DNA of 64,000 nt, taken from NCBI GenBank assembly GCA_029262635.1, contig JAJCZA010000029.1, positions 29,938 through 93,937 of the forward strand, in the 5' to 3' direction. A program made the translations under genes and the position numbers. A model generated the notes under the pieces. That model did no database searches. It was not told the origin of the DNA and was given only the letters and a program-made list of their open reading frames with translations. Source of the DNA: Vampirovibrionales bacterium. GTDB taxonomy: Bacteria > Cyanobacteriota > Vampirovibrionia > Vampirovibrionales > Vampirovibrionaceae. How positions within the stretch are numbered: position 1 is the first letter of the stretch; each line of letters opens with the position of its first letter. Shown piece by piece: positions 4,145 to 48,951 of the stretch.

Positions 4145-4600
4145 CTACCAATACAGCGAGGGGCCAGCTAGTTTAAATGCCCAGGCGATGAGCATTGCGA
4201 GTACTATCAGCAAAAGAATCCTGCTCACTCCGATAAGGTGAAGTCCCCTCAAGACTTTTCGAGGCCAAATCAGGCTAATGGTCATAAAGCTGAGTACACC
4301 CCAAAATAAAGGGATGCTTAGGGGGTGGAATCGGAATGCCTCGCTGAATTCACCGTGAGTAATAAGGACCATGGCACGAGTCATCCCACATCCAGCACAG
4401 GGGTAACTTGTTATGTGTTTAAACAGACAGGTTTCCGGTAGTAAAGGGATTCCCATGTGATTATGAGGAAAAGCCCCCAGTATAACGGGTTGAAAAACCA
4501 GCCAGGAATACCCGACAATACCAAGCATGAGCCCAAGGCATAAAACGTTTAGTGTGATTAATAGAATGCGGCCATCGGGAGATAGGGTGTTTTTCCACAA
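4145..4600 (-). CDS. DUF2752-family membrane protein
   Basis: Polytopic membrane protein with a CAGCGMTRA motif (CxxCGxTR) typical of DUF2752. Confidence 0.6.
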   Translation of the reverse strand: MWKNTLSPDGRILLITLNVLCLGLMLGIVGYSWLVFQPVILGAFPHNHMGIPLLPETCLFKHITSYPCAGCGMTRAMVLITHGEFSEAFRFHPLSIPLFWGVLSFMTISLIWPRKVLRGLHLIGVSRILLLIVLAMLIAWAFKLAGPSLYW

Positions 4601-4655
4601 AATTTAAAAACTCCCACTCAAAATTATTGATAAGCAAGAGTATACCGGGCTTTCG

Positions 4656-6854
4656 CTATGGGGTCAACTCGTTTAAATAGACTCTTGTAGGTTTTTTTAG
4701 TGTTTTAACGCCAATCAGCGCTAGGATGGTGCCAATTTCGTAGGCGTTCGGATCCGGGACGGCGTATTCAGCCTTACTTCCTATTAAGACTCGAATCCCT
4801 TCGTCAGACGCGTTGCTCAATGCTTTTAACATTTCATCGCTGTTGGTTAATGCTTTTCTGAGCTGAGTTTGGGCACTTTCTCGGTTGTTATTTAATATTT
4901 TTGTTAATTGAGTCAATAGGCTGTCGATTGTATAGGATGGGGTCTTGGAGGTTTGGATTGCTTGCAGGAGTTGTTCTCCCAGCTTCGGGTCGAATGCCTC
5001 AAACCCTTTTCGTAGCCGTTCTTCCATGGTCATAACCCCAATGGGTAAATGGCCATCACCATAACCATTCAATAATAAAACCGGTTGCTTTCCTTGAGGA
5101 ATCTTTTTGTTTCGTAGTCTTTGTGTTGCATCGGTCAGCACATCCGGCTCAATACCTGGAAAAATGGTAATAAACTCACCGGTTTCGTAAAACGCTTTAG
5201 GAATATGTAGGGTATTCTGTTGAATAAGTTCCCGATCCATAACCTCGCCGGCGTAATTTTCCCAGAGATCAGTGCGTGTAAATAAATCTCTTCCCTTATC
5301 TCGTGCTAAAAGAGCCGATAGCTTGATGCGCAGTTGTGAGGGTAAAATAAAGTCACACCCCTCAGACGCGTCTTTCATGGGTTTCTTTTGCTCGGTTTCA
5401 ATAATAAAAATCCCTTTTGAGGCGAGCTCTTCGATTTCCTGTTTAAACGCTTTATAATACCGGTGGGCGTATAGATTTCCTTCAATAACTGCGCCAGAAC
5501 CTTTTCCTTTGCTTTCCAGTCGCTTCACCAAATTATTAAATACATTTTTGGGTGTGCTTTTGTCGATGTTGATGTGTTCCACATACGTGGGTTTAAAGCC
5601 ATAAGACGGGAAAAAATCATTGACGTGAATATCCTGGCTTCTTTTTGCCAGAATCTTTTCCCACTCGTCTAAAAAGGCGGTGTCGAAAAAGATTTTTCCT
5701 TGTTCATCAAAATAGCCGACTGGGCGGTCATCTATGCTGGCAAAATAGGAGGCAGGGCCTGGTTTTCGCCAGGGTTTCTTTGAGCTGTAGGGGGTTTCAC
5801 CATCCGGCTTCCAGGGCTTTGTATTTATTTTTTTCACTCGGGTGGCTAAATGGATCTCTCTGCCAATAATCACATAGGTTCCAATGGGGACCGACACGTT
5901 TTTAGCCAGTTCTTCCGCATTTTTCTTGTTGGTAACGGCGTCTGTGCCGGGTTCTTCTTCCGTGGCGTAAGAGCCTGTTATTCCCATGACTTTGGGCAGC
6001 ATCAGGTAAGCGGAAAGGGAAGCGTCTTCGTCCAGGGTATCGGTTCCATGGGAAGCATAGAGCCCTGGACCACTCGGGTGGGGAAAGTCATAGTAGATAG
6101 AGATCTCTTCTGCGGGAATATAGTTTCCGGGTGTACCTAATATGATTCTTTTCTCTTTAATGGCTTTAAGATCTCTGATGACCGCTTTTCCCAGAGTGTC
6201 TAAAAAAGTGGCCTGGGTTTTTGGAGTTTGGTTTGAACTATCCAGTGTTGGAATCTCAGGATAGACAACAATTCGCTTTATTGGGATTGTACCGGTGCGA
6301 AGTGTACGAACAATGCCGGTACCCATGTTGGGGGCTTTGTCTGTTACCCGGGTGCCGGTCTTTGAATCCACGCGCATTACGATGGTGCCGCCCGTCTCTA
6401 ATTCATCGGGCTGACTGTTCTCTTCAAGCCATTGCGTAAAAAGGGTAACCACAGAATCTCGGTTCTTTTTAGGGGTTCTTTCAATAAAATCAAGAAATAG
6501 ACCGAACCTTCCACTAGCGGGGTTAAGGCCAAGCCGCTTAAAAAATTGTTGTATTGCTCGTTTCTCTTCTGAAGATAAAGAGGCGGGTGGGGTTTTCCCC
6601 GAAAAGAAAACATCGCTAGAAGACCTCTGATGGGAGAATAGAGGAACCTTCAGAGAGGCCTTGCGTACAAGTGAATTGTTATATTGAGGGTTATGCCCCT
6701 TTATTCCGGTCATTGTTTTCATGTGAAATAGATGACTTTCGGTTGGTTTTATCCCGTTGATTATGACATGGATAACGGATCCTATTAGAATGAAGCCTCT
6801 AAATTTTATAAAGTGCCTTGGCCGTATCATGACGTTACAAAAATTAATAAACAA
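4656..6854 (-). CDS. Large orphan secreted/membrane-anchored protein (about 730 aa), function unknown
   Basis: Long ORF with consistent coding bias and a signal-peptide-like segment (MIRPRHFIKFRGFILIGSVIHVIING) from an internal Met at about 6830. I recognise no catalytic motifs. Confidence 0.6.
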   Translation of the reverse strand: MFINFCNVMIRPRHFIKFRGFILIGSVIHVIINGIKPTESHLFHMKTMTGIKGHNPQYNNSLVRKASLKVPLFSHQRSSSDVFFSGKTPPASLSSEEKRAIQQFFKRLGLNPASGRFGLFLDFIERTPKKNRDSVVTLFTQWLEENSQPDELETGGTIVMRVDSKTGTRVTDKAPNMGTGIVRTLRTGTIPIKRIVVYPEIPTLDSSNQTPKTQATFLDTLGKAVIRDLKAIKEKRIILGTPGNYIPAEEISIYYDFPHPSGPGLYASHGTDTLDEDASLSAYLMLPKVMGITGSYATEEEPGTDAVTNKKNAEELAKNVSVPIGTYVIIGREIHLATRVKKINTKPWKPDGETPYSSKKPWRKPGPASYFASIDDRPVGYFDEQGKIFFDTAFLDEWEKILAKRSQDIHVNDFFPSYGFKPTYVEHINIDKSTPKNVFNNLVKRLESKGKGSGAVIEGNLYAHRYYKAFKQEIEELASKGIFIIETEQKKPMKDASEGCDFILPSQLRIKLSALLARDKGRDLFTRTDLWENYAGEVMDRELIQQNTLHIPKAFYETGEFITIFPGIEPDVLTDATQRLRNKKIPQGKQPVLLLNGYGDGHLPIGVMTMEERLRKGFEAFDPKLGEQLLQAIQTSKTPSYTIDSLLTQLTKILNNNRESAQTQLRKALTNSDEMLKALSNASDEGIRVLIGSKAEYAVPDPNAYEIGTILALIGVKTLKKPTRVYLNELTP

Positions 6855-15780: not shown

Positions 15781-17535
15781 CTACTTGATTTGGTTATAGG
15801 CGCTGTTGAGTAAGCCCAGGACATTAATCAGGCTGGCGTTGTAGAGGATTTGCGTCTCGTTAACGGAAAACGCTTTTTCATCATCCACGTAGCTCATAGC
15901 TTGCATACCTTTGGGCGTTTTGCCATCGTTGGGATAGTTGTTGGGACCAGCGACCAGCAAGCCGGGAATCACTTGGCCGCCTCGCTGAACGAATCGATGG
16001 TAGGGGTGTTTGACTGAATTGGGAGAGATGCCCGTGACATAGGTGATATCCACCGGGTTCATGCCAAAGAAATAGTGCACCATATTGGCTGCTGCTTCCC
16101 GGTATTTATTCCCATGGGTCATTCGGTAAGCCGAAAGCAGGATTGAGGCGTGTTCCAGAATTTGATGGTTAGAGCCACGCGTGTATTGCAATACGCTTAC
16201 GTGGTATGAATTGTTGTTCACTCGCTTTACCAGCATATCGGCTGAGTGTACAATTTGACGTCGAAAATAGTTAACGATGGTTTTATCCCGTTTATCACTC
16301 TGGGTGTATAGAACATAGTTCTCCATGCCCAGAATCACCGGATTTTTCCAGGAATAAGGTTCTATCTTGACCGATTTGTAGTTTTTTTCAATATAGTGGG
16401 CGTATTTAGCTTTTCCTGTGGCAAGATACAGCTCGATGGCCGCCCACAGTCGGTAGTTTCTATCACCTGCGGCGTTAATGTACTCTCGTGAACCGGCATC
16501 GTCATCTAAATCGACGTCAAGGAGATTTTCCGGGTGGGTTTCCAGGTATTTCCAGGCCCGTTCAGCGGCAATTAAATTTTTGACGGCATAGCCAAAATCA
16601 GCTTTTTTATAATTCCTAGAAGCAATGGCCATAACGGCCGCTCCAATGGCCGTATCTTGCGATGTGACACCAAACACATAGCGACGTTGCGTATCGTATT
16701 CCGGTGATTTTGTCGTAGGAAAAGATTTACCAGCCACTTTTCTGTAAAACACTCCGTCGTTTCGTTGCATGGCCAACAACCAGTCTAATCCGAATTTAAT
16801 TTCATGCAGGTAGTCCGCTACATCACCCAATCCCGGCTCTGCCATCGGATAATCCAGCTTGAGATAGCGCATGTTTTTAGGATCGACTTCGTTTACGGCT
16901 AGCATTTTAGCAACGGACAGACCTGTGGTGGTTACAAATTTGGCGTAATTATTACTGTTATACCAACCACCGCCGGCGTCTTTAAAAAAAATATCGCCCG
17001 TGTCCCGATCTTCCACGTAACCATCTTCCAGGTGAGTTGCCTCGCGAAGAATCCGGTTATTTTTTCCGACAAGCTCTTGTCCGCTTCGCTGTAGATAAAA
17101 CGAACGAACCGAAGGGATCATAGCATCCCAGTACAAGAATTCGGAAATATGAATCGGCACACTAATATCCGTGCCCTTAATCCGGAGCTGAAAATCACCG
17201 GGCTGTTTAAAATCAGAAAAATCAACAATCCAACGTTCCGCACCGGGGCCTTGCATTTTGTCGTCGACAAAGCGCTTAACGCTTTCTAGCTTGTAAAGTA
17301 CTTTGCCGATTTTAAAGGGAATAGCGTGTTTATAGGTTGGATCAAAAATTTCCAGTTTAACCTCGGTGCCCTTGGGCACATCTTCTAGAATGGCATGTTT
17401 AGTTGCGTTGGGATGATAGCCCACCTGATCGACTTTGAGCGTATAGGCGTCGGCGAAAAAACTGCCCATGAGCAAAAGGCACACGACCCAGAAGAAAATA
17501 GAACGAGATATCCACTTCCACGTTTGATGATTCAT
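15781..17535 (-). CDS. Secreted GH9-family-like protein with N-terminal Ig-like (CelD_N) domain; catalytic DAGD motif replaced by NSNN
   Basis: Signal peptide MNHQTWKWISRSIFFWVVCLLLMGSFFADA. CelD_N start YTLKVDQVGYHP. GH9 block DAGGGWYNSNNYAKF (compare GGWYDAGDxxKF), HPYHRF, and C-terminal NETQILYNAS. Start chosen at ATG 17535; the track ORF extends to 17667. Confidence 0.75.
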   Translation of the reverse strand: MNHQTWKWISRSIFFWVVCLLLMGSFFADAYTLKVDQVGYHPNATKHAILEDVPKGTEVKLEIFDPTYKHAIPFKIGKVLYKLESVKRFVDDKMQGPGAERWIVDFSDFKQPGDFQLRIKGTDISVPIHISEFLYWDAMIPSVRSFYLQRSGQELVGKNNRILREATHLEDGYVEDRDTGDIFFKDAGGGWYNSNNYAKFVTTTGLSVAKMLAVNEVDPKNMRYLKLDYPMAEPGLGDVADYLHEIKFGLDWLLAMQRNDGVFYRKVAGKSFPTTKSPEYDTQRRYVFGVTSQDTAIGAAVMAIASRNYKKADFGYAVKNLIAAERAWKYLETHPENLLDVDLDDDAGSREYINAAGDRNYRLWAAIELYLATGKAKYAHYIEKNYKSVKIEPYSWKNPVILGMENYVLYTQSDKRDKTIVNYFRRQIVHSADMLVKRVNNNSYHVSVLQYTRGSNHQILEHASILLSAYRMTHGNKYREAAANMVHYFFGMNPVDITYVTGISPNSVKHPYHRFVQRGGQVIPGLLVAGPNNYPNDGKTPKGMQAMSYVDDEKAFSVNETQILYNASLINVLGLLNSAYNQIK

Positions 17536-17605
17536 TAGATAAGGTGTCCTCATATACAATTCAAAAGCAACTTTTGTAATATTAAGATACCTCAACCCAG
17601 CGCGT

Positions 17606-19297
17606 ATGTGTACAATGGATAGCATGTTTAGAACAAAACTTTTTGCAAAGCTGAATCTTGACTCCACACAGATGAGCCGAGGACTTTGGATTTTGCTGAT
17701 TTTGCTGATTCTTTTTGGGTCGGCTCTCCGATTGTTTCAGTGGGACGAACGAAGTCTATGGCAGGATGAAGTCTTTACGGTTTCTCTTGCCACGGGAAAT
17801 CCCCTGTTTGAATCAACCTTGTTGCCCGATAATTTTGAACCGGATCCGTCAACCCCTCAAGCGCCTGAATATTATCGAAAAAAAGCCAATGCTCTCCAGT
17901 CATGGGATGATTTTGTGGCTGGGCTTCAGCACAATATCCAGATGCCCTTCTATCCCTTTGTTATTCGTCATTGGGTCACGTTTTTGACTGATTCCCCGAT
18001 TCACCTGCGGATGTTATCGATTCTAGCCGGGGTATTGGCCATTCCCTCGGCGTTTTTTTTAGGACGAGAGCTTATGGATAACCGGCTTGGACTTCTTATG
18101 GCAGGCATCTTTACTTTATCCGGCTTTCAGTTGATTTATAGCCAAACGGCTCGGGTTTACGCCTTGCTCACCCTGATTACCTTACTCTCTTCATGGGTGC
18201 TTATTCGGCTAACTCGGTTGCCTCAAAGGAAAAAAAGCCTCCTCTGCTTGCTTTTTGCGGTGTTAAGCTTATTGGGGGCTTACAGTCACTACTTTTACGG
18301 GTTTATCCTGATTTTTCATGGCGCTTGGGCTGTATTGCAGAGTGTCAAGTCTTCTGAACTTAGAAAACCTTTGCTGATAACAGGTTTAATGATTGGCTTT
18401 TTTAGCCTGCCCGGCTTGTGGCTTCTTTTCAATCAACTCCAGTTTATTAAAACAATCGGGCATGGCAACCTCAATGGATTATGGGAACCGTTAAACCTGA
18501 TGGAACGCTTGTGGAGTAATCTGCTTTCTATGATTAGTCCCAAGGATACTCCGACAAAAATTGTTGTTTTTATGCTTATTATTGGAGGTGTTGTTCAGGG
18601 CCTTCGAAAAAAATTACCAGCGCCTCCACTGCTCTTTGCCGGCCTCTGGTTACTTATCCTGGTTGGTGGGCTGGTTAGTGTGGATCTTATCAGTGAAACC
18701 CATCGGATTATGTCCAAGCGTTACCTGATTTTAGCCTCACCGGCAATAGTTTTACTGCTTGCTTACGGGCTTTACGCTCTTTTTACCAGCTTTCCAAAGC
18801 AAAGAGTCATTGTTGGCCTTCTTTTTTGCGGTTTTGTGGGCTTAATGGCTCAAAACTGCGTTCAGGTGCTAAGCGGAGAGAAATTTTTACGTAAAGAGGA
18901 TTATCGAAGTGCTGGATTAGTGATTCAAGCGGAACACCAACCGGGTGATCTCGTTTTGATTTCTCATTCGGGTGTTCACGCGGCAGGAATGGCCTTTTAT
19001 TTACCAGATGTTATAACGATGGCAGGTATTAGTCGGCGAAATGAGGGTACAGTATGGCTACCCAGTAAACTGGCTCAACATTTAAGTGGGTTGACTCAGA
19101 ATAAGTCCAACGTCTGGCTGGTTGAAACGCATATCCGTCCTCGCTCGCTTCAACAAGCCATTGAAGCCTGGATGAACCAGAGTTATAGCCTGAAGAGTAC
19201 CCGAAAATTCAGCAGTGTCCGCCTACTCCAGTTTAAAAAAACAGGAAATGCAAGAGGCTTTAGAAGGATGAAAACCCGGCGTGCTGATCTAAAATAG
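17606..19297 (+). CDS. GT-C fold membrane glycosyltransferase (ArnT/PMT, GT39/GT83-like) #1
   Basis: Polytopic. First loop is LFQWDERSLWQDEVFT (the DE motif typical of PMT/ArnT). The start may be the internal Met at 17672 (MSRGLWILLILLILFG). Confidence 0.7.
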   Translation: MCTMDSMFRTKLFAKLNLDSTQMSRGLWILLILLILFGSALRLFQWDERSLWQDEVFTVSLATGNPLFESTLLPDNFEPDPSTPQAPEYYRKKANALQSWDDFVAGLQHNIQMPFYPFVIRHWVTFLTDSPIHLRMLSILAGVLAIPSAFFLGRELMDNRLGLLMAGIFTLSGFQLIYSQTARVYALLTLITLLSSWVLIRLTRLPQRKKSLLCLLFAVLSLLGAYSHYFYGFILIFHGAWAVLQSVKSSELRKPLLITGLMIGFFSLPGLWLLFNQLQFIKTIGHGNLNGLWEPLNLMERLWSNLLSMISPKDTPTKIVVFMLIIGGVVQGLRKKLPAPPLLFAGLWLLILVGGLVSVDLISETHRIMSKRYLILASPAIVLLLAYGLYALFTSFPKQRVIVGLLFCGFVGLMAQNCVQVLSGEKFLRKEDYRSAGLVIQAEHQPGDLVLISHSGVHAAGMAFYLPDVITMAGISRRNEGTVWLPSKLAQHLSGLTQNKSNVWLVETHIRPRSLQQAIEAWMNQSYSLKSTRKFSSVRLLQFKKTGNARGFRRMKTRRADLK

Positions 19298-19329
19298 TTT
19301 GTAACGTTTTCTCTAACAGCACCTTATTC

Positions 19330-19358
19330 CCACCAAAGAAAGTAGGTGGTATTTTTTC
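19330..19358 (+). terminator. Possible rho-independent terminator after GT-C #1 (CCACC-10 nt-GGTGG + TATTTTTT)
   Basis: Read directly. Short stem, so weak. Confidence 0.35.
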
Positions 19359-19666
19359 CTGCTCTACTCGAATATTGAATTTCTCACCCGACCCGTCACG
19401 GAATGTAAAATCAAGCAGATGTTTTCCATCCGCCTGTATTTCATCACTACCCAGATAGTGAACAAGTCGCTTGTCGTATACCAGTTCCATAAAAAGCAAG
19501 ACCCTAATCTATAATCCCGATTGCCTACACTTAAATCTATTATCGACGAAAAGGCGAAAAAACTTTAGGCTTTTCTCTTTAAGTGTTTTTAAATGTATAC
19601 AAATTGTTATACTTTTTAGTATACATGAGGATTAAAATGTAAACAATAGGAGGTTCGGGTTTTTAT

Positions 19667-20584
19667 CTAAATCTGAGGTTTTATTTGGCTAAAGATAGTC
19701 ACCCGTTCTTTTTTTGTACATCGGGCGTTATGCAAAGCATGACGAGCATAACGAACCAATGCGTCAGCGTCGGCCACTTCATCGGGATCGGATAGGGGGA
19801 ACCCGGCTATTCCAGAGTGAATGGACAGGGTTTCTATGTCTTTTCCCGAATGAAATTCGACACCCTGAATGGATTGAACAATTCGGTTGGCCAGTATTTT
19901 TGCGCCTTTTTCCGTACTGCGAGGCAGGAGCAGGCCAATTTCGTCATCGCCGATGCGAGCGATAATATCTTCGTTTCGTTTGTGAGTCTGAATTACATCG
20001 GCCATTTTACAGACAATATTGTTTACAAAATCATAGCCGTAGCTATCCAGGTGAAGTTGAAAGAAATCCACACCAATAATAACGCAGGCCAAGGGGGACA
20101 TATGTCGCTTGGACAGTGAAATTTCTTCATTCAGGCGTTGCAGAAAGTAACGCCGGTTGTAGAGTTGAGTGATTTCATCCTGTTGGGCCGAGGCTTCCAC
20201 GTTGGCTAAAAGCTCACTTTGACGCAAGGCGGTTGAAACCCGACTTAAAATATCCAGCGAGGTCATGGGCGAGATTAAAAAATCAGTTTCAAAGGAGTGC
20301 CCTGATATTTTTTCGGCCTCTTGTTCAGCGCATATTTCAATGCATGTGGCTGTCGGCAAGGTCGACTTTACTTGGGCGACTAAAGGTTTACCCGGAGAAA
20401 AGGGCATCAAAACAACAGCGTAACTTTGACCCTTCAGTTCTTCGTTCAAGGCATCGAGTCCTGAAAGGGGCAAGAGTTTGTAATGTGGATTTAAGACGTC
20501 CTGAATCTGTTTTAACTCTGTAATATTGGGTTCGTCCAAAATATAAATCGTACTCATGCTCACCATTATAGCAATGGATAACAA
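19667..20584 (-). CDS. Pseudo-receiver + degenerate GGDEF domain protein (A-site GDDEI, I-site RNED intact); probable c-di-GMP effector
   Basis: The REC-like N-terminus lacks the phospho-acceptor Asp (AVVLMPF versus DxxMP). The GGDEF domain reads RNEDIIARIGDDEIGLL, which aligns to PleD RESDLLARYGGEEF. Confidence 0.8.
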   Translation of the reverse strand: MLSIAIMVSMSTIYILDEPNITELKQIQDVLNPHYKLLPLSGLDALNEELKGQSYAVVLMPFSPGKPLVAQVKSTLPTATCIEICAEQEAEKISGHSFETDFLISPMTSLDILSRVSTALRQSELLANVEASAQQDEITQLYNRRYFLQRLNEEISLSKRHMSPLACVIIGVDFFQLHLDSYGYDFVNNIVCKMADVIQTHKRNEDIIARIGDDEIGLLLPRSTEKGAKILANRIVQSIQGVEFHSGKDIETLSIHSGIAGFPLSDPDEVADADALVRYARHALHNARCTKKERVTIFSQIKPQI

Positions 20585-20634
20585 ACAAGGCAGGGCTATA
20601 TACAGTATTTTTTGAGCCTGATTTTAGTTTGACG

Positions 20635-21072
20635 CTAGGCTTCTCGATCCGTGATGATGCCTGCATAGCGCTGGATTTTTTCAGATACCTGTAGTAACTC
20701 GTCGCCGGTCAGGGTTAGCATTACTTGACCATTTCGTGAGTCAATCAGATCAACTAACTCAGAGCTTTCATTAACCTGAAAGCGGTAGAGAACGCCTTGT
20801 TCAAGGGAAAAATTCATGAGCCCCCGGAGCTTGGCAAAAACCAGAATTTGCTCGCGCTCTTCCTCGTTAAGCCCTTCTTGAGGTTCGTCTTCCGGATCGT
20901 AGTATTGTTCGAGTTCTTTGTTCACTTTTTCTGCGTCGTAGGCTTCCCGGTTTTTCTTAACTCTGGGTTGATGTCGTGCGGCTTCGTTCGCTTGATTAGC
21001 CCCAATGTAGGGGCTTAAAGGGTCAGCGTACGCATGCAATTGCGACGGTTTAGGAATGCCGTCAAAGCTCAT
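20635..21072 (-). CDS. Hypothetical acidic protein, immediately upstream of the degenerate GGDEF gene (likely co-transcribed)
   Basis: 145-aa ORF, 50-nt gap to the next gene on the same strand. Confidence 0.5.
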   Translation of the reverse strand: MSFDGIPKPSQLHAYADPLSPYIGANQANEAARHQPRVKKNREAYDAEKVNKELEQYYDPEDEPQEGLNEEEREQILVFAKLRGLMNFSLEQGVLYRFQVNESSELVDLIDSRNGQVMLTLTGDELLQVSEKIQRYAGIITDREA

Positions 21073-21170
21073 AAAGTCATCTCATTATTTCCAGATTGAG
21101 GATAGAATCAGGTAAAAATAACATTTCCTCTTGTTCAATATCGGCGCTTACGGTAAATTCTTTATGATAT

Positions 21171-21641
21171 TTGGTGGCAATCAACCATTTTATGGAGAAT
21201 CCATTGGACTTTACACTGTATAACCTCCTCACCTCTCAACTGCCAGAACCTCCTGACCTCTCTATTGTTCAAAGCAAACATCCCCTTCCTGAAGTATGGC
21301 CTGTTGTTGTTAAGGAAATCGTTCATTTTCGTAAACAATTGCAATATTTTATCGTGTCAGACGGCCGACAAGAGGTGTTTTGTTTCACCAAAGTGCCAGA
21401 AATTGAGGATAAAGTCGCTGTTTTAGAGTTGGGTAGCATTATTCATCTGATTGGCGCCGAAACCCGGTTTTCCGATAAGGAAAAGCGTTATGTTGTTGAT
21501 TTTGAAGAAATCTGTACCTTGAAAGAATATGACAATCGGGTAAAACAGCAGGCGGAGGATGAGAACAACCGTCGTATCTGGCTAAAAGAACAAGGCTATC
21601 TTGACGAAAGCGATTACAGCATGACCGGTTTAGAGGATTAG
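21171..21641 (+). CDS. Hypothetical protein upstream of nadD
   Basis: 156-aa ORF, same strand, 75 nt before nadD. Confidence 0.5.
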   Translation: MVAINHFMENPLDFTLYNLLTSQLPEPPDLSIVQSKHPLPEVWPVVVKEIVHFRKQLQYFIVSDGRQEVFCFTKVPEIEDKVAVLELGSIIHLIGAETRFSDKEKRYVVDFEEICTLKEYDNRVKQQAEDENNRRIWLKEQGYLDESDYSMTGLED

Positions 21642-24763: not shown

Positions 24764-26386
24764 ATGTTGAACCAGCTCCTTCCTCAATTCAATCATTTTT
24801 TCGCCCGGTTGGATGCCGGGGAAATCGTTCCCCATGCCCGCCCTTTGGCCCGTGTTATTGCGCCAAGTATTGCGGCAGCGCTGGCAAGTACTCAGTTGGC
24901 GATTGACTTAAAAAACGCGCCGGATCGGAAAACCCAAAAAAAAGTATTGATTCGGGACCTGCTGGCAATGGGGGGGATTATTGTTGGGCTGATAGCGGCG
25001 AGCAGAGCTTTAAGATGGCACTACGGTGTTTCCAACCATCTGCATTTGCCAGGAATTGCTCATGAACACGCCGAAAAAGCGGCAAACACGGCGAAAAAAA
25101 TCTTGAAAACTTCGCATGAGCGAATTACAGCCCTGTTTAAATCACCGAAATGCGATCACGCTGGTGAAGGTGTGGTTCGACTTCAGTCGATGGCTTTTGG
25201 CGGTATTTTAGGGGGCGGATTAGGCGGATTATTAGCGGATCGCATCAATGGAGAAGACCTGAGGCGAATGGCTGGCTTTAAATTAAAAGAAGGCTTATTT
25301 CAATACATTGGGAACATCACCTTTTGCACCGTGTCTATTTTGGCCATTGGTAAGTTGGGCAGGTATTGGGCGGAAAAGTACGCGGAATCTATCCTAAAAA
25401 AGGGGATGAAAACCCTTGAAGTATTTAAAGAAAAAACGGAAAAACATTTGAAAAACCTTATGGAAAAAGAAGTGGGCGATTTGAATACCTTGCCAGGCTC
25501 GGCGAGTGAATCCTTTGAAACTTATTGGTTGATGGCGACCAAAGATCAGAGGACTCTTCGACACGAATTTCATCATTTGGCCGATCATGCGAAACATCAA
25601 GGCCACGAGAATCCGAAAGCCTTAACTCGCTTGCTGGATCAGATGAAAACAACCCCTATAAAATATTCGCCAGATACTCGATTATTTCAGGAAGGGCTCT
25701 TACGCTACCTTAATGATGAGTTTGGTGAGCGGCTCGCTGGAAGACAAGGGAACGTTCTTTTAAACGAAATAAGCACTGAGCTGCTTCCGACTTTGGGCAA
25801 GTTATTTGAATCGGGTAATAAAAAAGAAGCCACACGGGTGTTTCGTGAATTTTATACCCGTCAGATTCAGGCCGATTTAAAAACAGTGACCCAAGAAAAG
25901 CGACACCTCTTTGATATTGCCAAGGAACGGTTTGCTATTTTTGGTGAGCGTATCGGGATTGTTGCCGGCCTATTTACCGGGATTATTGGTGGAGCCTTTG
26001 CCTCTAATGCCATTAATAAAGGACTCACTGATGTTTTGAACTTACCTGAAGGCCATGAGGTGAATGGCCTGTTCAGTGGACACGATCAAGGCAAGGGCTG
26101 GATGGAAGGGACCGTCGGAGAAAGGGGGATCCATTGGTGGGATGCTATTCTCCATCTCGATGATTGGCCTACAGCCCTTTATATTGCTGGGGTTCATTCT
26201 GTAGAGTCATTTATCAATGTTCTTTATGGGATTTCGGGGATGCTAACGGGTATGGCAGGAACGGACTACAAAACACCTCGATTTCAACCTTCTCAAGGGA
26301 AAAATAGAGGCTTCTACCCCAATAGTTCAGGCTACTCCCCCCTGAGTCGAAATCACCGAACCTACTCACGATTCTTGAATGGTTAG
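24764..26386 (+). CDS. Hypothetical membrane-associated protein (540 aa) within the glycosylation locus
   Basis: ORF with Gly-rich hydrophobic segments (GGILGGGLGGLLADR; GIVAGLFTGIIGGAFASNAI). No family recognised. Confidence 0.55.
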   Translation: MLNQLLPQFNHFFARLDAGEIVPHARPLARVIAPSIAAALASTQLAIDLKNAPDRKTQKKVLIRDLLAMGGIIVGLIAASRALRWHYGVSNHLHLPGIAHEHAEKAANTAKKILKTSHERITALFKSPKCDHAGEGVVRLQSMAFGGILGGGLGGLLADRINGEDLRRMAGFKLKEGLFQYIGNITFCTVSILAIGKLGRYWAEKYAESILKKGMKTLEVFKEKTEKHLKNLMEKEVGDLNTLPGSASESFETYWLMATKDQRTLRHEFHHLADHAKHQGHENPKALTRLLDQMKTTPIKYSPDTRLFQEGLLRYLNDEFGERLAGRQGNVLLNEISTELLPTLGKLFESGNKKEATRVFREFYTRQIQADLKTVTQEKRHLFDIAKERFAIFGERIGIVAGLFTGIIGGAFASNAINKGLTDVLNLPEGHEVNGLFSGHDQGKGWMEGTVGERGIHWWDAILHLDDWPTALYIAGVHSVESFINVLYGISGMLTGMAGTDYKTPRFQPSQGKNRGFYPNSSGYSPLSRNHRTYSRFLNG

Positions 26387-26486
26387 CCGCTGACCGGAGG
26401 CCCCTTAATGTTACTCAAGAAAGGGCAATTTCTCCCGTGTTTTGTGTTAATTTGATAAAGGTCGATTATAATGCAGGAAAAGGGTT

Positions 26487-27575
26487 TTGACAATATCTTC
26501 ACGCTCTGGTAGCCCCACCAATTTACCGCTTATTTCAGTCGTTATTCCTATTTATAACGAATTTGAAACCTTGCCGGAACTGGTTAGCCGGCTGGATGAG
26601 TTGATTCAAGAGTACTCGGCTTATGGGTGGGAAGTCATTTTTATTAACGATGGCAGTTCAGACGGCTCAACTCAACTGCTTTCGGATTTAAGTGCTCGTT
26701 ACCTTTGGGCAAGCGTTCTGCACCTGTCTAGAAATTTTGGTCACCAGACAGCCATTAGTGCTGGGCTTGATTTTGCCCGAGGTGAGGCGGTTATCGTGAT
26801 GGATGGTGATCTTCAGGATCCGCCGGAACTGTTACCGCAGATGATTGAGCGTTGGCAATCGGGCTATGATGTGGTTTATGCCACAAGAAAGCATCGAGAA
26901 GGCGAGACACCGTTCAAACTGTTTACGGCCAAGCTCTTTTACCGCCTTCTTAAAGGCCTATCAGATGTGGATATTCCGTTGGATACGGGTGATTTTCGCC
27001 TTATGAGTCGTCCTGTGGTTAACGCTTTTTCCATGATGCGGGAGAGAAACCGCTTTATCCGAGGCATGGTTAGTTGGGTTGGGTTTTCTCAAACAGCCCT
27101 TTACTATGAGCGAGATAAACGAACCCATGGCGAAACTAAGTATACTCTGCTCAAAATGATTCGTTTTGCTGTGGATGGTTTGTTATCCTTTTCCACCGTC
27201 CCTTTGCAGTGGATTACGACGTTGGGCTTTATCATTTCCGCCATTAGCTTCCTTGCCATTGTTGGCGTTTTCTACGTATCACTTGTTATGCAAATTGCTC
27301 TGCCCGGCTGGAGTTCTCTCATGGTCGGTATTCTGATGATAGGTGGCATCCAATTGGTGTGCATGGGCATGATCGGCGAATACGTCGGTCGAATTTTTGA
27401 TGAAGTGCGCAACCGCCCCCTGTATCTAATTAGCAAAATAGATTCCCAAACTTTGTCCCAAACGACAAAAACGTACCCACCCCAACTCCGTGAGATGATG
27501 ATTCATGACCACTCAAACTCCAGAGAAATCCCACACGCCTTTACCGGACAATCCAACCCCGTCCTTAGCCACTGA
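26487..27575 (+). CDS. GT2 polyprenyl-phosphate sugar synthase (DPM1/ArnC/GtrB-like)
   Basis: ISVVIPIYNEFETLPELV, MDGDLQDPPELLPQMIE and DVVYATR, then two C-terminal TM helices (GtrB architecture). TTG start with an AAAGGG RBS. The about 45-aa C-terminal tail overlaps the next gene by 71 nt. Confidence 0.85.
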   Translation: MTISSRSGSPTNLPLISVVIPIYNEFETLPELVSRLDELIQEYSAYGWEVIFINDGSSDGSTQLLSDLSARYLWASVLHLSRNFGHQTAISAGLDFARGEAVIVMDGDLQDPPELLPQMIERWQSGYDVVYATRKHREGETPFKLFTAKLFYRLLKGLSDVDIPLDTGDFRLMSRPVVNAFSMMRERNRFIRGMVSWVGFSQTALYYERDKRTHGETKYTLLKMIRFAVDGLLSFSTVPLQWITTLGFIISAISFLAIVGVFYVSLVMQIALPGWSSLMVGILMIGGIQLVCMGMIGEYVGRIFDEVRNRPLYLISKIDSQTLSQTTKTYPPQLREMMIHDHSNSREIPHAFTGQSNPVLSH

Positions 27576-28386
27576 GAATACCCTGACGGAGCGTCAGATT
27601 ACTGAAGCTCGTTTTCATGACGAATGGGCCAAATCCATCAATTTTACGGAAATTGATCCGGAAATCACTTTTGAGGCGCCAACGGCCATTGAGTGTCAGT
27701 ATGTCTTGTCGCAAATAGATGAACTAGCTGGTAAGCGTATTTTGGATCTGGGCTGTGGCAGTGGTGAATCGGGCGTGTACTTTGCCAAGCAGGGTGCTGA
27801 GGTTTCGGCCTGTGATATTTCCCCTCAGTTTATTGAAGTGGCAAAACAGTTGGCGAACCATCACAGTGTGTCGCTGGACACGGTTGTCTGTCCGGCGGAA
27901 ACTCTTCCCTATCCGGATGACTCGTTTGATATTGTGTTTGCCAACGGCGTTTTACACCACGTGGACATCCCGCTAGCCATGGAAGAGATTCGTCGGGTAC
28001 TTAAGCCAAGGGGGAAAGGATTTTTCGTCGAGCCTTTGCCCTATAATCCGGTGATTAATATCTATCGTTGGATTGCTAAAGAGGTTCGCACGCCGGACGA
28101 GAAACCTCTGACCTTTACCGATATCGGTACTATCCGTAAACGCTTTCCCAAAACCCATGTAGAATACTTTTGGTTTTTTACGTTGGGGGTTTTTCTGTAT
28201 TTTTTCCTGATTGAACGGGCCAGTACGTCGGAACGGTATTGGAAAAAAATTCTTTATGAAGCGGATAAGTACAAAGCTATGTTCAGCTTTCTAAAAAAAC
28301 TGGATGACGTTATTTTACCTGCCCTGCCCTTACTCAAGCCTCTGTGCTGGAACATGGTTATTCAGATTCAAAAAAACGAGAAATAA
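27505..28386 (+). CDS. Class I SAM-dependent methyltransferase (Methyltransf_11-like) with C-terminal hydrophobic segment
   Basis: ILDLGCGSGESGVYFAKQGAEVSACDISPQFIEVA is motif I. A C-terminal segment FWFFTLGVFLYFFLI follows. Confidence 0.8.
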   Translation: MTTQTPEKSHTPLPDNPTPSLATENTLTERQITEARFHDEWAKSINFTEIDPEITFEAPTAIECQYVLSQIDELAGKRILDLGCGSGESGVYFAKQGAEVSACDISPQFIEVAKQLANHHSVSLDTVVCPAETLPYPDDSFDIVFANGVLHHVDIPLAMEEIRRVLKPRGKGFFVEPLPYNPVINIYRWIAKEVRTPDEKPLTFTDIGTIRKRFPKTHVEYFWFFTLGVFLYFFLIERASTSERYWKKILYEADKYKAMFSFLKKLDDVILPALPLLKPLCWNMVIQIQKNEK

Positions 28387-28423
28387 GTAAGCCCTGACAA
28401 CTCTCGGAGACTTTACCTCTTTT

Positions 28424-29254
28424 ATGGCGCAACTAACCCATTTATTGGATAACACCACCCTCTCTGGCGGGCTGTCTTACTTTGATTACGAATATCAGGT
28501 CGCCGAAGCCATTGTGATCCCTTGGCTAAAAAAACATATTTACCTTAATAATCTATCTGTTGGGGATTTTGGTTGTCATCAGGGAGGTATTCTTCAAGCT
28601 TTTCGAGAACATGGCACGATTAGTTCCGGGACAGGCTATGACTTGAACGAAGACAGCATTCGTACTAGCCCCTTTGTCCGTGACGCTAACTTTCAGCTGG
28701 AAGTTGGCGACGTGCTAACGCTGGATCCGACGGTGAACTCGTTTGATCTTATTCTCATTCGAGATGTGTTGGAACACATTCCAGATTACGAAAACGTGCT
28801 TAGAAAGGCGCAAGCCTGTTTAAAACCGGGTGGGTATTTGTTTATCTCTTTCCCGCCATATTACTCCCCATTTGGTGGGCATCAACAACTGGCCGCTAAT
28901 TGGGCCAAGCTGGTGCCTTATTTGCATTATCTTCCGGAATCTCTGCTGTTTCAGCTCGTATCGCTAGTCGATAACAGCTACATGTCGGCTGAGGACTCTA
29001 AAGGTGACATGACTTCCGTTCGTCGCACTCGCTTAACATTAGGTAAAACCGAAAAAGCTTTTCAAGCAATAGGCCTTCTCCCTGTGGCGCAGGATTACTT
29101 TCTCTTACGGCCCGAGTTTAAAATTCGATACGGGATTCCAGCCCTTCCTTGCGCTATTATGGGACGTATTCCTTTCTTGAGAGAAGTCGTTACCATGGGC
29201 GTTTACTATCTGGTTCAAAAGCCGAATAGCCCCTGTTTAAAGGGACATCATTAA
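28424..29254 (+). CDS. Class I SAM-dependent methyltransferase #2
   Basis: DFGCHQGGILQAF... and DLILIRDVLEHIPDYENVLRKAQACLKPGGYLFISFP. Confidence 0.75.
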   Translation: MAQLTHLLDNTTLSGGLSYFDYEYQVAEAIVIPWLKKHIYLNNLSVGDFGCHQGGILQAFREHGTISSGTGYDLNEDSIRTSPFVRDANFQLEVGDVLTLDPTVNSFDLILIRDVLEHIPDYENVLRKAQACLKPGGYLFISFPPYYSPFGGHQQLAANWAKLVPYLHYLPESLLFQLVSLVDNSYMSAEDSKGDMTSVRRTRLTLGKTEKAFQAIGLLPVAQDYFLLRPEFKIRYGIPALPCAIMGRIPFLREVVTMGVYYLVQKPNSPCLKGHH

Positions 29255-29256
29255 TT

Positions 29257-30204
29257 GTGAGCACGGCCACCCACAACGAAAACACAACCCCACCTCAGCA
29301 TTCGTCAGCTGAGGGTGTTAGCCATTCGCTGGCGGTGATTGAACCGTTGAGTTATCAATGCCCCTTTTGTCGGGGCAAACTGTCTAACGATATGGGTGAA
29401 AGCTATACCTGTTTTGATTGTCGAGCTAATTACTCTTCCCGGTTTCCTCGTGGCAAACGTCAGCCGGATTTTCGGATTGATGGCGGGGTCTATTCTAAAC
29501 GGCTGGATAAAACCGAAAGCTTTCAGAACCGTATTAAAATGATCCTGCGAAAATTTCCGGGTCTGTACCGCTTCTTGGTCTATGTCATCGGCCCGGCGCT
29601 TCTCCTTGGTCCAACCTCTCAAACCTTTGTTAACCAATTGAGTCCACATGACCGGGTGTTGAACATTGGTTCGGGTGTGATGCGCCTGAAAGGTAACGTC
29701 ACCCATCTGGATTATGAACCTTACCCTCATTTAGAAGTTGTTGGTGACGCACATCATCTGCCTTTTTCTGACAACTCCTTTGATGCTGTGGTTTGTGAGA
29801 CCTTGTTGGAACATGTGCCCGAACCTGCCCGGGTTATTAACGAAATGCGGCGGGTATTGCGGCCTGGTGGTAAAATCTACGTGATGATGCCGTTTATTTT
29901 TAATTTTCACGCTGCTCCCAATGATTTTCATCGGTTTACCCACCGGGGATTAGAACATCGGATGCGAGGATTTAAAAAAGATCAGCTTAAGGTTATTGCA
30001 GGGCCCACGTCTGCACTGACCTGCGTGTTGATCGAATGGTTGGCCATGGTCTTTTCATTTGGTAGTAGCACCCTGTATCGCTTTCTCAGTCTGTTTTTTA
30101 TGGTCTTATTATCGCCATTAAAGCTGTTGGACTTTGTTCTTTCTGCCCATCCAGAAGCCATACGCATCGCCTCGGTTCTCCTGTTTATTGGAACCAAGCG
30201 ATAG
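29257..30204 (+). CDS. Class I SAM-dependent methyltransferase #3 with N-terminal Cys4 zinc ribbon
   Basis: CPFCRGKLSN...CFDCRANY is a zinc ribbon. VLNIGSGVMRLKG... and DAVVCETLLEHVPEPARVINEMRRVLRPGGKIYVMMPF form the MTase core. There is a 2-nt gap from the previous gene. Confidence 0.8.
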   Translation: MSTATHNENTTPPQHSSAEGVSHSLAVIEPLSYQCPFCRGKLSNDMGESYTCFDCRANYSSRFPRGKRQPDFRIDGGVYSKRLDKTESFQNRIKMILRKFPGLYRFLVYVIGPALLLGPTSQTFVNQLSPHDRVLNIGSGVMRLKGNVTHLDYEPYPHLEVVGDAHHLPFSDNSFDAVVCETLLEHVPEPARVINEMRRVLRPGGKIYVMMPFIFNFHAAPNDFHRFTHRGLEHRMRGFKKDQLKVIAGPTSALTCVLIEWLAMVFSFGSSTLYRFLSLFFMVLLSPLKLLDFVLSAHPEAIRIASVLLFIGTKR

Positions 30205-30213
30205 GAGCACTCT

Positions 30214-31680
30214 TTGTTCATGCCTGATCTGTTTGAATCTATTTTTATGACCCGCTGGCTAATGTTAGGGTCCATGATGGTTTTGGGTGGGTTTACAGTA
30301 CTCTTAATCCGATCCCTCTGGCGGGATGGAAACACTCTGAAACAGGGGAAGCCAGAATTCCATCCGTTCCGTTGGCCAGTGATCTTGTTGGGTGTTGGGT
30401 TGCTTTTACGGTTGGGCTGGATTATAGCCACCCAACCGGAACCCATTAGTGATTTTCTTATTTATTGGCAATACGCCAGCGCTTTTGCTCAAGGAGGTTA
30501 TACTTACGCGGAGTTGAGCCGGCATCCGGGGATTATTGTCTTATATTCATGGTTTTTTAATCTGTTTGGCACGTCGCTGGCTACAGGTTGGGCCATGAAC
30601 ATGCTTTTTTCGGCGCTCATGATGGTGTTGATGTATGCGTTAGGTACTGATATTTTTGGCCGAAGAGCCGGGTTGCTGGCTTTGGGGTTGACGGCGTTTT
30701 TACCCCAGTTAATAACCTATACAGCACTGTTTGCTTCGGAAACCCCTGCCATTGCCTGCTTTTTGATGGTGCTTTGGGCGGTACTGTACAGCCGGAACCA
30801 TCCCGTCGGGCAGACCCTCGGTTACTGGATTGCTTTGGGGGTTCTGCTTTATGCCACTATTCTTCTTCGCTCCAGTGCCATGATCTTTTTGGGATTGATT
30901 CCTGTGCTGTTTTTTCTGTTTCGCCGAGACTATTGGCAAACGGTTCTCAAGCAATTTGCAGTCTTGGCCGTGACCACGGCCTTGCTGCTTTCTACATGGA
31001 TTGCCCACCAAAACGTTATTGGTGGCAGCCCAAAAATGTTTTGGGGCGCGGAACTCTGGTTGGGGTGTGCGATTCAGTACGAACGTGGTGGACGCTATAC
31101 GGATCCCAAAGACATGGGGTTTTACGAAAAAATTAAACCCTATTACGAAGCGGGTAATTTAATTAAAGCTTATGAAATCATTGGAGAGGAGTCCATGAAA
31201 GTAGTCCTCGCTGATCCGTTTAAATACTTGGCCAATGGTGTTACCCGAATGCGGTATATTGTTTGGACCTCTCAGACTGGCATTCGTTGGAGCCACCGGG
31301 GGAGTCAAGTGGGTTCTGGGTTGATGGATCGCTGGCCTCAAAAATACATCAACAAGCTGGCCAATGTCTCTACGATTCTTTGGCAGATTATTCTGTGCAC
31401 CTCTTTGTTAGGGCTATTTACTTATCGTCCTCGCTTTTATCAAAAACGGTCAGACACCGTACAAGAGACTCATCAAGAAGGGTGGGTTTTTATCCTGGGC
31501 TTTCTTCTTATTTGGGGTGTATTTCATTACCTGTTTGCTGTGGCGAGTGAGCGCTATTCTTTCCAGATCATTCCGTTTATCTTATTGTTCTTCTCCGGTG
31601 GTGTGTTATGGATGATTCGAACCCTAAGCGAGCTTTTCCAAAAATCATCGGTTACAATGGAATCAGAGTCACTTCACTAA
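30214..31680 (+). CDS. GT-C fold membrane glycosyltransferase (ArnT/PMT_2-like) #3, terminal gene of the GT2-MT-MT-MT-GT-C operon
   Basis: 488-aa polytopic protein. Loop WRDGNTLKQGKPEFHPFRWPVILLGVGLLLRLGWIIATQPEPISDFLIYWQYASAFAQGGYTY resembles the ArnT/PMT N-terminal region. It lies 9 nt after MTase #3. Confidence 0.65.
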   Translation: MFMPDLFESIFMTRWLMLGSMMVLGGFTVLLIRSLWRDGNTLKQGKPEFHPFRWPVILLGVGLLLRLGWIIATQPEPISDFLIYWQYASAFAQGGYTYAELSRHPGIIVLYSWFFNLFGTSLATGWAMNMLFSALMMVLMYALGTDIFGRRAGLLALGLTAFLPQLITYTALFASETPAIACFLMVLWAVLYSRNHPVGQTLGYWIALGVLLYATILLRSSAMIFLGLIPVLFFLFRRDYWQTVLKQFAVLAVTTALLLSTWIAHQNVIGGSPKMFWGAELWLGCAIQYERGGRYTDPKDMGFYEKIKPYYEAGNLIKAYEIIGEESMKVVLADPFKYLANGVTRMRYIVWTSQTGIRWSHRGSQVGSGLMDRWPQKYINKLANVSTILWQIILCTSLLGLFTYRPRFYQKRSDTVQETHQEGWVFILGFLLIWGVFHYLFAVASERYSFQIIPFILLFFSGGVLWMIRTLSELFQKSSVTMESESLH

Positions 31681-48714: not shown

Positions 48715-48951
48715 ATGTATCGTGACGGAGCCATCCATATTGAAGAAGATGACCAGTGTTTTTCCTGTAAACACTATCTTAAAGGGGTGTCCTGCCCTTT
48801 ACTGGAAGCTCTGGCTATGGAAGTGGTCGAACTTCAGAGTGATATTACGGTTCGAAACTGTGGGTTTTACGAGAAGTTTGAACGAAAGTTACGCCTGCTG
48901 GATCCCCTTGAGATGAGTCAACAGGAACCGGATCAAACAGAACTGGCCTAG
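48715..48951 (+). CDS. Possible small Cys-rich protein (78 aa)
   Basis: CFSC...C...C pattern. It overlaps the 3' end of the HD-GYP gene convergently by 4 nt. Confidence 0.3.
   Translation: MYRDGAIHIEEDDQCFSCKHYLKGVSCPLLEALAMEVVELQSDITVRNCGFYEKFERKLRLLDPLEMSQQEPDQTELA

Follow-up and report, generated by a model that had tools for sequence, protein, structure and literature searches.

A degenerate receiver-GGDEF protein of Vampirovibrionales with a conserved I-site, a probable c-di-GMP receptor encoded next to a FlaG homologue

Introduction

Degenerate GGDEF domains can act as effectors: PopA of Caulobacter crescentus and PelD of Pseudomonas aeruginosa both carry such a domain and bind cyclic di-GMP (c-di-GMP) at a retained RxxD motif, the I-site. 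PopA contains two receiver domains and is an adaptor for proteolysis and localisation, and PelD is a membrane protein with a GAF and a GGDEF domain. In this work, we have analysed a stretch of 64,000 nucleotides from a Vampirovibrionales bacterium (assembly GCA_029262635.1, contig JAJCZA010000029.1, positions 29,938 to 93,937; the whole stretch is referred to as the window, and all positions are counted from its first letter). It encodes a degenerate GGDEF protein for which the original prediction had proposed a pattern of the PopA/PelD type. This holds for the logic, i. e. a dead GGDEF domain with an intact I-site, but not for the domain architecture: The window protein has, in contrast to PopA, a single receiver-like domain in front of the degenerate GGDEF domain, and, in contrast to PelD, it has neither a GAF domain nor a transmembrane segment, as judged from a Pfam scan and an AlphaFold model, but an N-terminus with a receiver fold instead. 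Our analysis suggests that the protein is a catalytically dead descendant of a receiver-GGDEF diguanylate cyclase of the DgcR/WspR type and that it belongs to one orthologous family in the Vampirovibrionales, a reading to which we assign a probability of roughly 0.6. Judging from residue conservation and the structural model, the protein is probably a c-di-GMP receptor and not an enzyme.

Three described proteins are particularly helpful for comparison. DgcR of Leptospira biflexa (structures 6zxb, 6zxc and 6zxm), the prototypic receiver-GGDEF diguanylate cyclase (PMC8041772), has the same length as the window protein, and both consist of one receiver, a stalk helix and a GGDEF domain. Common to both are the RxxD motif, the arginine of the R163-type secondary I-site and the R237 position. 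However, DgcR is active, activated by phosphorylation and inhibited by its product, whereas the window protein lacks the phospho-acceptor aspartate as well as the catalytic and GTP-binding residues. CdgA (Bd3125) of Bdellovibrio bacteriovorus has the sequence GVNEF, lacks cyclase activity, and is a receptor that binds c-di-GMP with a Kd of about 2 µM (PMC3271064). With the window protein it has in common the degenerate GGDEF motif, the RxxD motif five residues upstream and the predatory host, and the likeness is that of the shared GGDEF domain. CdgA is found at the non-flagellar, prey-invasion pole, and no linkage to FlaG has been described for it (PMC3271064). Finally, CbrR is a receiver-GGDEF protein of the polar flagellate Campylobacter jejuni that binds c-di-GMP via its I-site and regulates flagellar motility (PMC8779298). 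CbrR has a variant A-site and a variant I-site (KGRD, nine residues from SAEKI), two receivers with the predicted phospho-acceptor aspartates D53 and D174, and reported GTP binding; the window protein matches the NCBIfam CbrR model only weakly (E 1e-11, score 44 against a cut-off of 600).

Our literature search revealed no paper that joins c-di-GMP with Vampirovibrio. The family described here is a concrete and conserved candidate for a c-di-GMP receptor in the non-photosynthetic, predatory relatives of the cyanobacteria. Its location beside a FlaG homologue with a predicted sigma-28 promoter suggests a testable link between the second messenger and the control of the flagellar filament, and the mechanism of FlaG itself has been understood only recently.

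The degenerate GGDEF protein and its family

The gene and the relevant sites of its GGDEF domain are the following:

19667 to 20557, minus strand: coding sequence of the degenerate GGDEF protein, 296 amino acids from the family-conserved ATG at 20557
19706 to 20188, minus strand: GGDEF domain (PF00990), catalytically degenerate (Pfam; residues 133-293 of the 305-amino acid open reading frame)
19967 to 19978, minus strand: primary I-site R-N-E-D (RxxD), aligned to R206xxD209 of DgcR
20105 to 20107, minus strand: arginine equivalent to R163 of DgcR, secondary I-site, in helix alpha0 (SKRHMS aligns with CKRHDS of DgcR)
19883 to 19885, minus strand: arginine equivalent to R390 of PleD and R237 of DgcR, third residue of the primary I-site (alignment)
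19937 to 19951, minus strand: degenerate A-site G-D-D-E-I at the position of GG(D/E)EF (alignment to DgcR and outgroup proteins)

Both this open reading frame and that of the FlaG-like protein upstream are real, and both are located on the minus strand with the coordinates of the original prediction. In addition to the ATG at 20557, there are two in-frame starts further upstream, an ATG at 20566 and a TTG at 20584, the latter giving a protein of 305 amino acids (19667-20584). The N-terminal consensus of the family, MTxIYxL, supports the start at 20557. The distance to the FlaG-like gene is then 77 nucleotides; the 50 nucleotides initially proposed apply only to the TTG start.

The protein matches the Pfam GGDEF profile over positions 1-160 of 161 (E 4.4e-29, 101.8 bits against a cut-off of 23.8). 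Among proteins of solved structure, its closest relative as detected by HMMER is DgcR of Leptospira (6zxm/6zxb; E 2e-26, aligned over residues 37-290). An AlphaFold model built on 53 orthologues (predicted local distance difference test score, pLDDT, 94) has a receiver-like domain of the (beta/alpha)5 type followed by a long stalk helix and the GGDEF domain, and Foldseek retrieved full-length DgcR as the top match (TM scores 0.74/0.75), with PleD and WspR next. The NCBIfam equivalog cut-offs are missed not only for CbrR but also for DgcR (113 against 500) and PleD (88 against 474).

A database search returned about 59 proteins of approximately 300 amino acids above 149 bits, and then the scores drop to 97 bits. 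The named sources of these proteins and 18 loci from GTDB representative genomes all belong to the Vampirovibrionales/Melainabacteria, and the family is present in both assemblies of V. chlorellavorus. As judged from these sequence comparisons, the orthologue family is restricted to Vampirovibrionales. Conservation was scored on an alignment of 53 orthologues with identities down to 31%, in which just 19 of the 298 positions of the window protein (about 6%) are invariant. As outgroup, we aligned five proteins with both the Pfam Response_reg and the GGDEF domain. All five keep the phospho-acceptor aspartate, the threonine and the lysine of the receiver and the GG[DE]EF signature, and the degenerate state of the family is therefore derived.

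Loss of the catalytic residues and retention of the I-site

The assignment of GDDEI as the A-site was borne out by two alignments: RIGDDEI pairs with RFGGEEF of DgcR in the HMMER alignment and with RxGG[DE]EF of the five outgroup proteins. None of the 53 orthologues has a GG[DE]EF signature. Its positions are occupied by G (37) or S (15), by D (50) or N (3) in place of the second glycine, and by D (42), E (all 53) and I (45). The loss extends beyond the signature. In PleD, D327, N335 and D344 are the residues which we take to be the magnesium-binding aspartate, the guanine-binding asparagine and the guanine-binding aspartate. Their counterparts in DgcR, D174, N182 and D191, were mapped via a numbering offset of +5 (R206/D209) on the HMMER alignment, and their roles are assigned by analogy to PleD. 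The magnesium-binding aspartate is replaced in all orthologues (35 G, 13 S, 5 R; G in the window protein), and so is the guanine-binding asparagine (by L, V or M; L in the window protein). The base-binding aspartate is never D (N in the window protein), and the catalytic lysine is mostly Q. Without the magnesium-binding aspartate, both guanine-binding residues and the second glycine, the protein should be unable to make c-di-GMP. Thus, the suspected dead cyclase agrees well with the alignment, and a lack of cyclase activity is very likely. We discarded an active enzyme with an altered motif as an explanation, since all the other catalytic residues have been lost too.

The I-site presents a different picture. 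RNED pairs with the I-site RKSD of DgcR in the HMMER alignment, and equally with the I-sites of the five outgroup proteins. It is located exactly five residues ahead of GDDEI, the canonical spacing between RxxD and the A-site, and its arginine and aspartate are invariant in all orthologues, in full agreement with the perfect placement claimed before. For DgcR, the structural paper describes a c-di-GMP complex with R206xxD209 as the primary and R163 as the secondary I-site and R237 as the equivalent of PleD R390; it names the residues R147, R163, K179, R206, D209, E218 and R237, of which E218 is the fourth residue of the signature (PMC8041772). The corresponding residues of the window protein, R196, D199, R153 and R227, are each conserved in 53 of 53 orthologues. 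Since so few positions of the family are invariant, it is very unlikely that all four would be among them by chance. Binding of c-di-GMP at the I-site is therefore, as far as residue conservation can tell, a likely property of the protein.

The family has sequence motifs of its own. DSYGY (residues 173-177), RYARHALH(Q)A(R/K) (residues 271-281, in the numbering of the 298-residue protein) and a C-terminal LFSEIKP tail are nearly invariant, and they have no counterpart in active cyclases. The strong conservation of GDDEI, DSYGY and RYARHALH hints at a second functional surface: At the former active site, the remodelled A-site and the family motifs may together provide a surface that accommodates a partner or another ligand.

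The pseudo-receiver domain

The N-terminal part of the protein comprises these features:

20264 to 20557, minus strand: pseudo-receiver with a (beta/alpha)5 fold, lacking the phosphorylation residues (AlphaFold strands and helices E5-9 through E93-98; Foldseek)
20405 to 20407, minus strand: methionine codon at the position of the phospho-acceptor aspartate (residue M60 of the 305-amino acid open reading frame; LILLD aligns with AVVLM)
20186 to 20260, minus strand: long alpha5/stalk helix from the pseudo-receiver to the GGDEF domain (AlphaFold helix 102-126)

The receiver-like nature of this region had been anticipated, and it is supported by the predicted (beta/alpha)5 fold and the Foldseek match to DgcR. 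Only the detail of the phospho-acceptor position has to be corrected: The residue is methionine rather than valine, and, in the alignment to the five receiver-GGDEF proteins, two valines are found two to three residues earlier in strand beta3. In the family, this column contains F (28), L (10), A (4) and other residues, but none that is acidic. The positions of the receiver threonine and lysine are occupied by alanine and serine in the window protein, and neither threonine nor lysine is conserved in the family. Lacking all three residues, the domain should not be phosphorylatable. The Pfam Response_reg profile (PF00072) gave no match in the N-terminus, and this result as well as the methionine, alanine and serine at the key positions identify the domain as a pseudo-receiver. 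The stalk helix is predicted to be a dimerisation coiled coil by analogy to the architecture given for DgcR (PMC8041772).

The upstream FlaG-like gene and the predicted promoters

Upstream of the degenerate GGDEF gene, three features are relevant:

20635 to 21072, minus strand: FlaG/YvyC-family protein, 145 amino acids, isoelectric point 4.6 (Pfam matches of orthologues, family profile)
21138 to 21164, minus strand: sigma-28 (FliA)-type promoter of the FlaG-like gene, consisting of TAAAG, a 14-nucleotide spacer and GCCGATAT (motif search, conservation)
20565 to 20570, minus strand: TATAAT, a -10-like hexamer 7 nucleotides before the ATG of the degenerate GGDEF gene and preceded by TGC (conservation in orthologous loci)

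The upstream protein had been described as an acidic orphan. It is indeed acidic (27 D and E versus 16 K and R), but the term orphan does not apply, since the protein is a member of the FlaG/YvyC family. The Pfam FlaG profile (PF03646) is matched by 13 of the 15 orthologues with a best E of 9e-9, it is precomputed for about half of the database relatives, and some of these are named FlaG or FlaG/YvyC by NCBI or JGI. When 1.8 billion proteins were searched with a profile of the family, canonical FlaG proteins were reached at E values of 1e-4 to 1e-3, and nine of ten of these tail matches match PF03646 themselves with 28-82 bits. The copy in the window is more divergent, with an E of 0.018 and 15.6 bits for the Pfam profile (cut-off 23.8) and a weak match to the NCBIfam FlaG model (E 0.007). 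The model of the protein has a pLDDT of 65, with values of 76-87 in the C-terminal part that consists of a helix, three strands and a helix. Foldseek gave no significant match for this model; FlaG of H. pylori (6jsx) was found at rank 11 (E 0.54) and YvyC of B. subtilis (2hc5) at rank 22. A profile search of the PDB with the alignment of the family yielded a best E of 0.18, on a low-complexity acidic stretch.

The FlaG-like protein resembles canonical FlaG (from Campylobacter, Vibrio and Pseudomonas; YvyC in Bacillus) in its size, in the Pfam homology across orthologues and in the sigma-28-type promoter of its gene. It differs in that the gene is located outside a flaG-fliD-fliS cluster; neither fliD and fliS nor any other flagellar gene was found beside it in any locus examined. 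Moreover, canonical FlaG aligns to residues ~46-145, whereas residues 1-45 (MxFDGxPxP...) form a conserved, lineage-specific extension, and an acidic linker is likewise lineage-specific. FlaG antagonizes the docking of FliS-flagellin on FlhA, and in this way shortens polar filaments and limits filament length (PMC11536152).

The sigma-28-type motif of the FlaG-like gene is the one conserved block in an otherwise variable spacer when 12 orthologous loci are aligned. The pattern TAAA-N14-16-GCCGATA occurs only once in the 64 kb, against 0.14 matches expected, and the predicted transcription start is near A21130. Elements and spacing are equal to those of the sigma-28 promoter of P. aeruginosa fliC, TCTAAAG, 14 nucleotides and GCCGATAA (PMC12784957). 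Genes for SigD/FliA, FliS and FlhA are present in V. chlorellavorus, which has a single polar flagellum for swimming; flaG is absent from Table S3 of the V. chlorellavorus paper, which covers genes for flagella and type IV pili. The same motif is also found on the minus strand 3' of nadD in three other loci (L005, 4043-4068; L017, 3226-3251; L018, 2245-2270; L numbers denote our orthologous loci). The copy in L005 is located just upstream of a gene for a TadE-like (PF07811) pseudopilin, which suggests that a pilus-related gene may belong to the FliA regulon.

It had been proposed that the two genes are co-transcribed. However, the degenerate GGDEF gene carries a conserved TATAAT of its own, which is also present in loci without a FlaG neighbour. 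The exact hexamer precedes the orthologous ATG by 6-13 nucleotides, mostly 7, in 16 of 19 loci, and it is retained in L013, L022 and L024, all of which lack an adjacent flaG gene. A general preference of the genome for TATAAT-N7-ATG was rejected as explanation, as the window has two matches and chance alone predicts 1.8. The conservation of the hexamer points to a dedicated promoter and a leaderless or near-leaderless mRNA that would start at the ATG at 20557. With such a promoter, co-transcription with the FlaG-like gene would be possible but not required. A generic scan for sigma-70 promoters and terminators between 19200 and 21700 gave matches at chance level and no terminator between the two genes, and RNA folding of their spacer revealed no stable hairpin (z +1.3). 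Thus, read-through from the sigma-28 promoter is possible. No riboswitch or other RNA family was detected by Rfam between 19000 and 22000, and an upstream c-di-GMP riboswitch was rejected on these grounds. The longer spacers of L005 (~5820-5850) and L011 (~4850-4880) contain a near-identical GC-rich hairpin, GTCATTCCCGCG(C/A)A(G/A)GCGGGAATCC, which could represent either a short repeat or an insertion resembling a terminator.

Gene order and c-di-GMP turnover

In 16 of about 20 distinct loci, the gene directly upstream of the degenerate GGDEF gene is the FlaG-like gene, in the same orientation. For ten additional pairs of a FlaG-like and a degenerate GGDEF protein from the databases, the longest contig has the same length for both partners. 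The conserved block consists of nadD and a hypothetical gene in divergent orientation, followed by the genes for FlaG, the degenerate GGDEF protein, a glycosidase of glycoside hydrolase family 9 (GH9) and dnaE. The GH9 protein (CelD_N and Glyco_hydro_9 domains, with an N-terminal hydrophobic segment) is encoded at 15781-17667 on the minus strand of the window and also in L004, L005, L008 and others. In most Vampirovibrionales loci it follows the degenerate GGDEF gene on the same strand, even if flaG is missing (L024), and dnaE follows in turn. GH9 may be a functional neighbour, or the order may simply be inherited.

Both the junction between flaG and the degenerate GGDEF gene and that between the latter and GH9 can be broken by insertions. 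The second junction is interrupted in the window at 17606-19499 by an open reading frame for 79 amino acids (19260-19499, minus strand) and a gene for a PMT_2 membrane glycosyltransferase (17606-19297, plus strand), an insertion seen only here and in L002/L016. In V. chlorellavorus NCIMB 11383 (L022), a gene for 205 amino acids with a prokaryotic N-terminal methylation (type IV pilin-like) motif lies between the FlaG-like gene and the degenerate GGDEF gene (4232-4849, plus strand); the other V. chlorellavorus assembly (L021) does not have this insertion.

The window also encodes a TPR-GAF-HD-GYP protein of 901 amino acids (48948-51653, minus strand; PF13487, E 1e-40), 28 kb from the degenerate GGDEF gene. 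Its LLHDIGK and HHEKMNGTGYP motifs are intact, and this makes it a candidate c-di-GMP phosphodiesterase. The intact HD and GYP motifs argue that the organism turns over c-di-GMP. In Pfam scans that covered most open reading frames of the window of at least 120 amino acids, this was the only HD-GYP protein, and neither a flagellar gene nor a PilZ protein was found.

Possible functions of the degenerate GGDEF protein

In the mechanism that we envisage, the conserved -10 element of the degenerate GGDEF gene would drive a near-leaderless mRNA, possibly with read-through from the upstream gene in addition. The protein would form a dimer via its stalk, and a conformational change of the protein would be read by a protein partner. 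The output is our best guess: it might be flagellar assembly or motility, in the swim/attach cycle of polar-flagellated predators. This guess is prompted by the upstream gene, a FlaG homologue under a late-flagellar promoter of the sigma-28 type, and it draws on the antagonism of FlaG towards FliS-flagellin at FlhA and on the precedents of CdgA and CbrR. Thus, a flagellar output, or one via FlaG, is no more than a tentative proposal. It is tempting to speculate, in a still more daring version which we consider rather unlikely, that the flagellar export gate is placed under the control of c-di-GMP by a switch with two parts, the degenerate GGDEF protein and the FlaG homologue. The c-di-GMP-bound protein would bind or release FlaG, perhaps through the 45-residue extension or the acidic linker. 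The competition of FlaG with FliS-flagellin at FlhA would thus be tuned, and filament length or assembly would track the transition from swimming to attachment. If real, such a switch would represent a novel type of output for c-di-GMP effectors, with substrate docking in flagellar type III secretion as its target. If only the core reading holds, the family is one more lineage-specific example in the well-known class of degenerate GGDEF receptors that use the I-site.

Several observations weigh against the proposed receptor and its flagellar output. RxxD and the extra arginines are frequent in the active cyclases of the outgroup as well, and the I-site residues could be ancestral and retained for a structural role. 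Selection also acts on the former A-site (D206 in 50 of 53 orthologues, E208 in all), and DSYGY and RYARHALH are invariant; a model based on the I-site leaves both unexplained. The FlaG-like copy of the window is below the threshold in Pfam, and its fold search gave no significant match. The conserved block also holds GH9, dnaE and nadD, and the link to FlaG is one of adjacency, which is weak evidence of function in Vampirovibrionales since gene order is conserved there regardless of function. The degenerate GGDEF gene persists, with its own promoter-like element, without a FlaG neighbour in L007, L013 and L024. Finally, the Pfam scans of the window revealed neither a flagellar structural gene nor, among the scanned open reading frames, an active diguanylate cyclase (GGDEF) or an EAL protein.

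These observations have to be considered together with the alternatives. A c-di-GMP receptor might have an output other than the flagellum, i. e. the envelope, polysaccharides or the hydrolysis of prey walls, for instance through control of the membrane-anchored GH9 glycosidase. The control of exopolysaccharide machines by receptors of the PelD type is comparable. Most loci have the GH9 gene as the next gene downstream in the same orientation, including L025 and L024, the latter without a FlaG neighbour, and the neighbourhood in the window is rich in glycosyltransferases. Nevertheless, we regard such an output as unlikely: a small open reading frame and the opposite-strand PMT_2 gene split the pair in the window, L002 and L016, the presence of dnaE after GH9 in the same block suggests that the adjacency may be inherited gene order, and no partner of the cellulose synthase type was seen. 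It is also conceivable that the protein is a nucleotide-independent scaffold or adaptor in which the GGDEF fold and the pseudo-receiver serve as interaction surfaces and the I-site is structural. The degenerate A-site, DSYGY, RYARHALH and the LFSEIKP tail match the I-site in conservation, which suggests other functional surfaces. However, the four c-di-GMP-contacting residues are invariant in 53 sequences as compared to some 6% of all positions, their spacing is canonical, and tested proteins of this pattern do bind c-di-GMP (CdgA with a Kd of about 2 µM, PMC3271064; CbrR, PMC8779298), so that a pure scaffold seems quite unlikely.

The remaining alternatives concern the nucleotide and the enzymatic activity. 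Degenerate GGDEF domains that sense GTP are known, and the protein might similarly sense another nucleotide, such as GTP or (p)ppGpp, at the remodelled A-site or at the I-site. E208 is kept, an R (36) or K (16) is found at the position of the phosphate-binding lysine of active cyclases, and (p)ppGpp-bound PleD structures are among the Foldseek matches. This idea is improbable, as the guanine-specific asparagine and aspartate and the magnesium-binding aspartate are gone in all members; their absence argues against GTP binding at the A-site. Relatives are annotated in public databases as 'diguanylate cyclase (GGDEF)-like protein', and a few non-canonical signatures have been reported to retain some activity (discussed for CbrR, PMC8779298). 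However, diguanylate cyclase activity despite the unusual signature is hard to reconcile with the replacement of the magnesium-binding aspartate, the catalytic lysine (mostly by Q) and both guanine-binding residues in all 53 orthologues, and with scores far under the cut-offs of the NCBIfam cyclase equivalogs (as for DgcR, 113 against 500). We consider it highly improbable, and the public label of the relatives is probably wrong.

Further genes in the window

The hypothetical gene of the conserved block encodes a member of a family of 140-156 amino acids without a match in Pfam or NCBIfam (21171-21641, plus strand). Of the 15 distinct loci in which nadD is seen, 13 have this gene immediately upstream of nadD, in divergent orientation to the FlaG-like gene; in L004/L010 and L020 we did not detect it. 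Further downstream on the plus strand, a same-strand run at 24764-31680 encodes a glycosyltransferase of family 2 (GT2), three S-adenosylmethionine (SAM) methyltransferases and a second PMT_2 membrane glycosyltransferase and has the appearance of a cluster for glycan modification.

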